Shown: positions 1-252 of the stretch, piece after piece | Layout: every line of letters starts with the position of its first letter | How positions within the stretch are numbered: position 1 is the stretch's first letter | Sequence record: BH153091.1 | Origin: a phage | Reading direction: 5' to 3' (one strand) | DNA: 252 nt | The notes under the pieces: model-generated | Told to the model about the DNA's origin: nothing | Seen by the model: the letters and a program-made list of their open reading frames with translations, nothing else | Database searches by the model: none | Translations under genes and position numbers: made by a program

Positions 1-86
1 TATATGAATACTCCGTTTTCGAACCAAACGACGGAACTATTCGATTCGAAAAACGTCATCCTACATTCGGTGGCGCAATTGATGTA
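1..86. other. Cloned insert DNA of unidentified origin (non-vector part of a recombinant clone)
   Basis: Sequence 1-86 matches no lac/pUC element I recognise and abuts the polylinker at the BamHI-side junction. It contains two TTCGAA palindromes (18-23, 45-50) and a CAATTG site (76-81). Origin cannot be determined without a database search. Confidence 0.5.
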
Positions 87-125
87 GATCCCCGGGTACC
101 GAGCTCGAATTCGTAATCATGTCAT
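61..125 (-). CDS. lacZ: lacZ-alpha reporter 5' end (vector-borne), interrupted by the polylinker insert; short fusion ORF ends in the insert
   Basis: Minus strand reads ATGACATGATTACGAATTCGAGCTCGGTACCCGGGGATC..., i.e. canonical ATGACCATGATTACGAATTCG... minus one base. First ATG (125-123) gives ATG ACA TGA, an immediate stop. Second ATG (120-118) opens a frame encoding MITNSSSVPGDLHQLRHRM, with TAG at 63-61. MITNSSSVPGD is the known pUC18 lacZ-alpha N-terminus. Confidence 0.8.
87..112. other. pUC18/M13mp18-type multiple cloning site remnant: BamHI-derived GATC junction, SmaI/XmaI, KpnI, SacI, EcoRI
   Basis: Directly seen: GATC 87-90 preceded by A (AGATCC 86-91, BamHI site not regenerated), CCCGGG 91-96, GGTACC 95-100, GAGCTC 101-106, GAATTC 107-112. 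This order with EcoRI next to the lacZ start is the pUC18/mp18 orientation. Confidence 0.9.
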
Positions 126-138
126 AGCTGTTTCCTAG
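121..138 (-). other. M13/pUC reverse sequencing primer site and lacZ Shine-Dalgarno (AGGA, minus strand 133-136)
   Basis: Reverse complement of 121-138 is CTAGGAAACAGCTATGAC, versus the standard M13 reverse primer CAGGAAACAGCTATGAC. The match is exact except for one extra A at position 137. AGGA sits about 7 nt upstream of the ATG at 125. Confidence 0.85.
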
Positions 139-143
139 TGTGA

Positions 144-164
144 AATTGTTATCCGCTCACAATT
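144..164 (-). promoter_or_regulatory. lacO: lac operator O1 (LacI binding site)
   Basis: Plus strand 144-164 is AATTGTTATCCGCTCACAATT, the reverse complement of the canonical O1 AATTGTGAGCGGATAACAATT. Exact match as recalled. Confidence 0.9.
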
Positions 165-169
165 CACAC

Positions 170-199
170 AACATACGAGCCGGAAGCATAAAGTGTAAA
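170..199 (-). promoter_or_regulatory. lac promoter (Plac): -10 TATGTT at 170-175 and -35 TTTACA at 194-199 on the minus strand, 18-bp spacer; transcription runs toward decreasing coordinates
   Basis: Plus strand AACATA (170-175) and TGTAAA (194-199) are the reverse complements of the wild-type lac -10 and -35 hexamers. The 18-bp spacer 176-193 (CGAGCCGGAAGCATAAAG) matches the canonical lac spacer. Confidence 0.88.
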
Positions 200-211
200 G
201 CCTGGGGTGCC

Positions 212-234
212 AATGAGTGAGCTAACTCACATTA
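212..234 (-). promoter_or_regulatory. CAP/CRP binding site of the lac promoter
   Basis: Plus strand 212-234 AATGAGTGAGCTAACTCACATTA is the reverse complement of lac CAP site TAATGTGAGTTAGCTCACTCATT. TGTGA and TCACA half-sites are present; one T is missing at the distal edge (between 211 and 212) relative to canonical. Confidence 0.85.
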
Positions 235-246
235 ATTGCGTTGCGC

Positions 247-252
247 TCACTG
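247..252 (-). pseudogene. lacI: 3' terminus of the truncated lacI remnant carried by pUC-type vectors (last codon CAG plus TGA stop); continues beyond the window
   Basis: Reverse complement of 241-252 is CAGTGAGCGCAA, matching the end of lacI (...GGGCAGTGA) followed by GCGCAACGCAATTAATG upstream of the CAP site. Only two codons fall inside the window. Confidence 0.6.

Follow-up and report, generated by a model that had tools for sequence, protein, structure and literature searches.

Organization of the analyzed stretch

The DNA analyzed in this work (252 nt, hereafter the window) consists of 90 bp of coliphage RB49, cloned in a pUC18-type vector, followed by vector sequence that was read and left untrimmed. 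Its features are the following, with coordinates given as positions in the window:

1-86, plus strand: insert from phage RB49 (Krischvirus), 3' part of the hypothetical gene RB49p262 (90/90 identity, gene table, open frame +3)
87-90: GATC ligation junction between the Sau3AI end of the insert and the BamHI end of the vector (comparison of RB49 with pUC18)
91-112, minus strand: polylinker in the pUC18/M13mp18 orientation, with SmaI at 91-96, KpnI at 95-100, SacI at 101-106 and EcoRI at 107-112, as in U36911, GQ149348 and GQ149343
117-125, minus strand: lacZ-alpha start with the one-base deletion of site 1 (121/122), from the alignments
Between 121 and 122: site 1, one G absent in CATGGTCAT (ATGACCATG turned into ATGACATG)
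137: site 2, an extra A (T on the lac sense strand) after TTTCCT, just 5' of the Shine-Dalgarno AGGA
144-164, minus strand: lac operator O1 (AATTGTGAGCGGATAACAATT), intact by direct reading and identical to the references
165-166: site 3, one C of a CC doublet lost in AATTCCACAC, with a single C left at 165 (G of GTGTGG on the sense strand)
170-199, minus strand: lac P1 promoter, intact, with -35 TTTACA at 199-194, an 18-nt spacer and -10 TATGTT at 175-170 (promoter scan, references)
211-212: site 4, a T lost in GCCTAATGAG (A of CATTAGGC on the sense strand)
212-233: CAP site
247-252, minus strand: lacI remnant, namely its last six bases CAGTGA with the stop codon at 249-247, where the record ends (alignment)

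The segment at 144-164 was named O1 in line with established knowledge of the lac operon. Neither terminators nor complete open reading frames of at least 30 aa were found in the 252-nt window, and an Rfam scan of its whole length returned no RNA family. Further, the junction between insert and vector had no exact match in IMG/VR viral contigs or in JGI metagenome contigs.

The insert is a Sau3AI fragment of a Krischvirus phage

Positions 1-90 are 100% identical (90/90) to positions 157942-158031 of Escherichia phage RB49 (NC_005066.1), and eight other Krischvirus records are equally identical over the same interval; RB49 itself is the likeliest source of the insert, with a near-identical Krischvirus as another possible one. 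Frame +3 of the window is open and corresponds to the reading frame of RB49p262, a gene of which a mere 90 bp are represented. In the RB49 locus (L005), this gene spans positions 849-1607 and encodes a 252-aa protein that is conserved in Krischvirus phages and matches phrog_14799, a family of unknown function. GTDB genome contigs contained no match to a 30-mer taken from the insert, as expected for a lytic phage, and searches of the insert against plasmid records returned chance matches only.

GATC sites flank the insert on both sides in the RB49 locus (L005 1497-1500 and 1587-1590), and the window starts at L005 1501. Since one GATC lies right before window position 1 in RB49 and another one is found at 87-90, the insert together with 87-90 is one complete 90-bp Sau3AI/MboI fragment (GATC to GATC) placed in a BamHI site. 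Moreover, the record starts exactly after the 5' GATC, and thus the vector was trimmed at the 5' side and left in at the 3' side. Past the second GATC, the sequence of RB49 continues as GTAGATCAATACG (AATACG...), whereas the window runs GATCCCCGGGTACC / CCCGGGTACCGAGCTCGAATTC, like pUC18; the BamHI site was not regenerated because base 86 is an A. The clone may be linked to the RB49 'snapshot' project (Desplats et al. 2002).

The vector portion differs from pUC18 by four single-base indels

The remainder of the window was studied through a multiple alignment with the pUC18-bearing records U36911, GQ149348 and GQ149343 and the native K-12 lac region on F128, and a second alignment, pairwise and global, was made against the pUC18 portion of U36911. 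In reverse complement, 87-252 matched pUC18-bearing plasmid records end to end, at about 98%, over the lac promoter, lacZ-alpha and the polylinker. Positions 87-117 were identical to U36911, GQ149348 and GQ149343 and unlike the native lac sequence GGATTCACTGG, and the order ATG..ATTACG-EcoRI-SacI-KpnI-SmaI-BamHI confirmed the mp18 orientation. Both the alignments and the promoter scan displayed the lac control region (CAP site, -35 TTTACA, -10 TATGTT and O1) joined to the lacZ-alpha start, with the lacZ Shine-Dalgarno AGGA at 133-136. At the distal end, the lacI coding sequence terminates at position 306 of locus L004, where the match begins at 301.

The window has in common with the pUC18/M13mp18 cassette (vectors of Yanisch-Perron, Vieira and Messing) the lacI 3' remnant, the CAP site, lac P1, O1, the Shine-Dalgarno sequence, the lacZ-alpha start and the polylinker order, and it departs from pUC18 in its four single-base indels and in the BamHI site destroyed by the ligation of a Sau3AI end. 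The record ends inside the lacI remnant, and its 166 nt of vector cannot separate pUC18 from pK18, pUC118 or M13mp18, a distinction that lies in the rest of the backbone (ori, bla). An initial annotation of this DNA, made from the sequence alone, had recognized a canonical lac/pUC18 cassette, which the alignments bear out; the reference to which it compared the sequence proved right in these alignments, with the qualification that GQ149343 shares site 1. The same annotation had described four indels with no substitutions, and both alignments contain them: over the 166 bases of 87-252, exactly four single-base indels (121/122, 137, 165/166 and 211/212) and 0 mismatches were counted. Site 3 is located between the -10 hexamer and +1/O1, and site 4 borders the CAP site (212-233) on its promoter-proximal side. 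These alignments, together with the searches described below, show what the insert and the vector are, where they join, which indels there are and whether each of them recurs elsewhere.

Site 1 corresponds to an allele carried by real vectors

The occurrence of each indel in other sequences was assessed with a 171-nt query made of four pieces, each harboring one indel in otherwise canonical sequence and cut to a length at which any 28-mer megablast seed has to span the indel; shuffling the order and the strand of the pieces prevented alignment run-on between them. Among 72,556 PLSDB plasmid records, this exact-variant search recovered the site-1 allele in 6, all of them matched by the site-1 piece alone and canonical at sites 2-4:

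MH192349, pRT801
CP041081, Bacillus tropicus p8
GQ149343
GQ149346
CP067031, Agrobacterium pCH32
CP135179, Vibrio plasmid

Just 3 PLSDB records contained the canonical pUC18-type start (ATGACCATGATTACGAATTC in context). A 37-mer containing the site-1 allele and the polylinker was present in 9 GTDB genome contigs, produced by several independent projects, as well as in 3 metagenome contigs. In IMG/VR the allele gave 0 matches, in a search with almost no power, given that the canonical pUC18 string itself occurs in just 1 contig there.

The published literature holds the allele as well. The string ATGACATGATTACGAATTC, which is exact across codon 2 and the EcoRI site and equals window positions 107-125 on the minus strand, is printed as the vector overlap of cloning primers in 44 papers, versus 59 for the canonical string, among about 8 million papers. 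It forms part of a primer stated to overlap pK18mobsacB (PMC9959259), and of primers for pK18ms deletion plasmids (PMC5985610), for a pK18mobpheS-based system (PMC11423575) and for pKC-named Streptomyces constructs (PMC11837490).

The engineered plasmid CP135179 (Vibrio cyclitrophicus ZF270, L009 1374-1398 and 1501-1538) carries two lacZ-alpha starts: Plac precedes the canonical ATGACCATG, and a tac promoter precedes ATGACATG. The coexistence of both alleles in one assembly argues against a systematic assembly error, and shows that the canonical and the deleted lacZ-alpha starts are distinct physical lineages of the cassette. Taken together, these findings show that ATGACATG exists physically, as an allele of the pUC18-type lacZ-alpha cassette, and is widespread. 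The vectors with ATGACATGATTACGAATTC (the pK18mobsacB family, pKC-named constructs, pRT801, pCH32 and the Ptac cassette) share with the window the codon-2 deletion and the EcoRI-proximal polylinker and, unlike the window, are canonical at 137, 165/166 and 211/212.

Whether the deletion was already in the vector or arose in the read can be weighed from its position and its frequency. In a 168-nt vector stretch, the chance that a random deletion hits that particular GG doublet is about 0.012, rising to about 0.035 when any of three deletions may do so, and the two alleles have similar frequencies among pUC18-type cassettes; on these grounds, site 1 was very likely already present in the vector stock of this library. 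As a GG-to-G contraction, site 1 is also of a common read-error kind, which leaves some room for chance noise. The proposal that all four indels are read noise is supported for 137, 165/166 and 211/212, which were found nowhere else, and is not supported for site 1, an allele of real vectors.

The initial annotation had further stated that the G deletion frameshifts the lacZ-alpha initiator, which is accurate for one of two initiators. With the site-1 allele, the first ATG (125-123) reads ATG ACA TGA, while the second ATG (120-118) lies in the lacZ-alpha/polylinker frame; the allele is tolerated because this second ATG keeps the frame. Vectors with the allele would still give blue/white screening. 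In this particular clone the frame effect is moot, since the insert brings a stop into the lacZ-alpha frame (MITNSSSVPGDLHQLRHRM*). The ATGACATG allele is worth knowing for vector-screening references and for primer designers, as departures from textbook pUC18 are not always noise.

Sites 2-4 are found in the window alone

Conversely, sites 2, 3 and 4 had no match among the 72,556 PLSDB records, and strings across them, on either strand, occurred in 0 papers among about 8 million. The pieces for sites 1-4 had no match in 5,426 complete E. coli genomes (20,395 records), nor among 50,697 phage records. At bacterial mutation rates, a plasmid is vanishingly unlikely to acquire, in the absence of selection, three independent indels within 75 bp. 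With sites 2-4 lacking a counterpart in any collection searched, and with three unselected indels in 75 bp not being credible, read error is the best explanation for them; their uniqueness and this implausibility suggest that they are most likely base-calling or gel-reading errors.

If these sites were real, the extra base at 137 would sit immediately 5' of the Shine-Dalgarno sequence, the 165/166 deletion would leave the -10 hexamer one base closer to +1/O1, and the 211/212 deletion would bring the CAP site one base nearer to the -35 hexamer. For the 165/166 deletion, a -10-to-operator distance shortened by 1 base had been proposed earlier, and this geometry is right. In a disrupted cloning cassette, the geometry of the indels is without consequence. 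The promoter scan also revealed that the site-4 deletion creates a TTGGCA hexamer: by turning CATTAGGCA into CATTGGCA, it places a -35-like TTGGCA (window 208-213) 17 nt upstream of TATGCT (185-190) on the minus strand, and the scan reports this pair as a site. The TTGGCA/TATGCT site is an artefact of the probable read error.

Origin of the record and alternative explanations

We hold with good confidence that the record derives from a plasmid shotgun clone through a short single-pass Sanger-type read, in which the site-1 allele of the vector stock is combined with three read errors. According to this explanation, a 90-bp Sau3AI fragment of RB49, or of a near-identical Krischvirus, would have been joined to the BamHI ends of a pUC18/M13mp18-type vector, and the read would have the direction given by the universal (-20/-40) primer, crossing the small insert and continuing into the lac promoter side of the vector. 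The deposited record would be such a single-pass read, or be derived from one, with the 5' vector trimmed at GATC and the 3' vector (87-252) left in; site 1 would most probably have pre-existed in the vector stock as the ATGACATGATTACGAATTC allele, and sites 2-4 would be base-calling or gel-reading errors located about 175-250 nt from the -20 primer.

The read direction, the sequencing technology and the error status of sites 2-4 are inferred. The plus-strand orientation corresponds to a universal-primer read, which puts window position 1 at base 39 from the -20 primer, the indels at bases 159, 175, 203 and 249 and the end of the record at base 290. Automated Sanger reads are normally good between bases 159 and 250 from the primer; this read must therefore have been poor, manual or early-generation. 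The overall error rate, 3-4 in 252 nt, fits single-pass Sanger reads. The errors are not significantly more concentrated in the vector part (P = 0.19-0.29), and the last 40 bases (213-252) are error-free; these points, like the position of the errors in a normally good part of a read, count against the read-error account. A Sau3AI/BamHI clone in pUC18 with one-sided vector trimming would have the anatomy of a classical Sanger shotgun library.

The indel profile had earlier been called typical of uncorrected long-read or low-quality sequence, and the data do not support the long-read origin. At error rates of 5% and 10%, a 252-nt read would have no more than 4 errors with probabilities of about 0.005 and 2e-7, respectively, so that the observed rate is far too low for raw long reads; in addition, all runs of at least 4 in the window (TTTT, AAAAA, CCCC and GGGG) and all runs of at least 3 in the vector part are correct. 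The errors comprise two doublet contractions, one single-T loss and one A insertion without an A neighbour, and the homopolymer-error test indicated that the longest homopolymers are not where they accumulate. An origin of the indels in a homopolymer-sensitive or long-read platform (454, Ion Torrent, nanopore, PacBio) is for these reasons very improbable, even with an indel-only profile, a length of 252 nt that resembles a 454 FLX read and doublet contractions in 2 of the 4 indels: the long homopolymers are correct while a single T was lost and a non-homopolymer A was inserted, the error probabilities just given are too small, and the clone anatomy would point to the classical Sanger shotgun library.

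A reading in which the pUC18 was fully canonical and all four indels arose in sequencing or base calling is unlikely. The absence of substitutions among the four single-base indels, the nature of site 1 as a doublet contraction like site 3, and the existence of the canonical allele in real vectors too are in line with it, but noise would have had to reproduce a known allele (chance of about 0.012 for one random deletion and about 0.035 for any of three) that is as common as the canonical one among pUC18-type cassettes (6 vs 3 in PLSDB, 44 vs 59 in papers). At the opposite end, all four indels could be physically present, in a clone made in a mutated or variant vector, an otherwise undescribed pUC18 derivative. 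The reality of the site-1 allele lends something to this view, as it shows that the departures from canonical are not all noise; nevertheless, sites 2-4 are missing from all the plasmids, E. coli genomes, phage records and papers searched, the records with the site-1 allele that were examined are all canonical at sites 2-4, and three independent unselected indels within 75 bp are vanishingly unlikely by established knowledge, all of which makes such a vector highly improbable. If true, it would have a shifted CAP-to-promoter spacing, a shortened -10-to-+1 distance and an altered base before the Shine-Dalgarno sequence. Finally, a natural variant of the E. coli lac operon could be considered on the basis of the 96.6-96.7% identity between the window, from 106/107 to 252, and native lacI-lacZ. 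The probability of this is negligible: an mp18-type polylinker (EcoRI-SacI-KpnI-SmaI-BamHI half-site) lies next to the lacZ start, the lac segment is fused to phage DNA at GATC, and the indels are in none of the 5,426 E. coli genomes, with 96.7% as the best identity of the window to any genome. Natural E. coli lac polymorphism is refuted by the polylinker.

Vector sequence in this and other public records

The whole stretch is thus a cloning artefact, and all its parts are known things: a pUC18/M13mp18-type vector, a known vector allele, an RB49 fragment and read errors. It holds no new biology, as no mechanism, new element or open question is touched, and its relevance is one of data hygiene alone. 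Positions 87-252 are cloning vector and should be masked; otherwise, a lac promoter and lacZ-alpha would be wrongly credited to the phage.

Comparable cases were observed in other deposited sequences. In IMGVR_UViG_3300005346_000334, a 16-kb 'viral' contig, positions 1-164 (L006) consist of the untrimmed pUC18 lac promoter, lacZ-alpha and the polylinker up to a SmaI half-site, followed by the insert; a public viral contig is here contaminated with vector. Like the window, this entry has a pUC18 lac/polylinker block at the end of a deposited viral sequence; unlike the window, it was cloned at SmaI, and its vector part is canonical and error-free. Likewise, GQ149343, GQ149346 and GQ149348, described as 'E. 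coli plasmids from giant panda intestine', contain a complete pUC18 lac/polylinker block, two of them with the deleted ATGACATG allele and one with the canonical start; these three records look like cloning-vector chimeras deposited as natural plasmids.

The ATGACATG allele also turns up as a contaminant of genome and metagenome assemblies. The polylinker with the deleted allele is carried by contigs of 4,650-4,852 bp, four of them of exactly 4,650 bp, in isolates of six unrelated marine genera (JAHK*) from one sequencing batch, and it is found too in the assemblies of A. johnsonii CIP 64.6, Klenkia sesuvii and Methylobacterium organophilum. Its presence in the marine isolates and in these three other assemblies is probably due to laboratory vector contamination.
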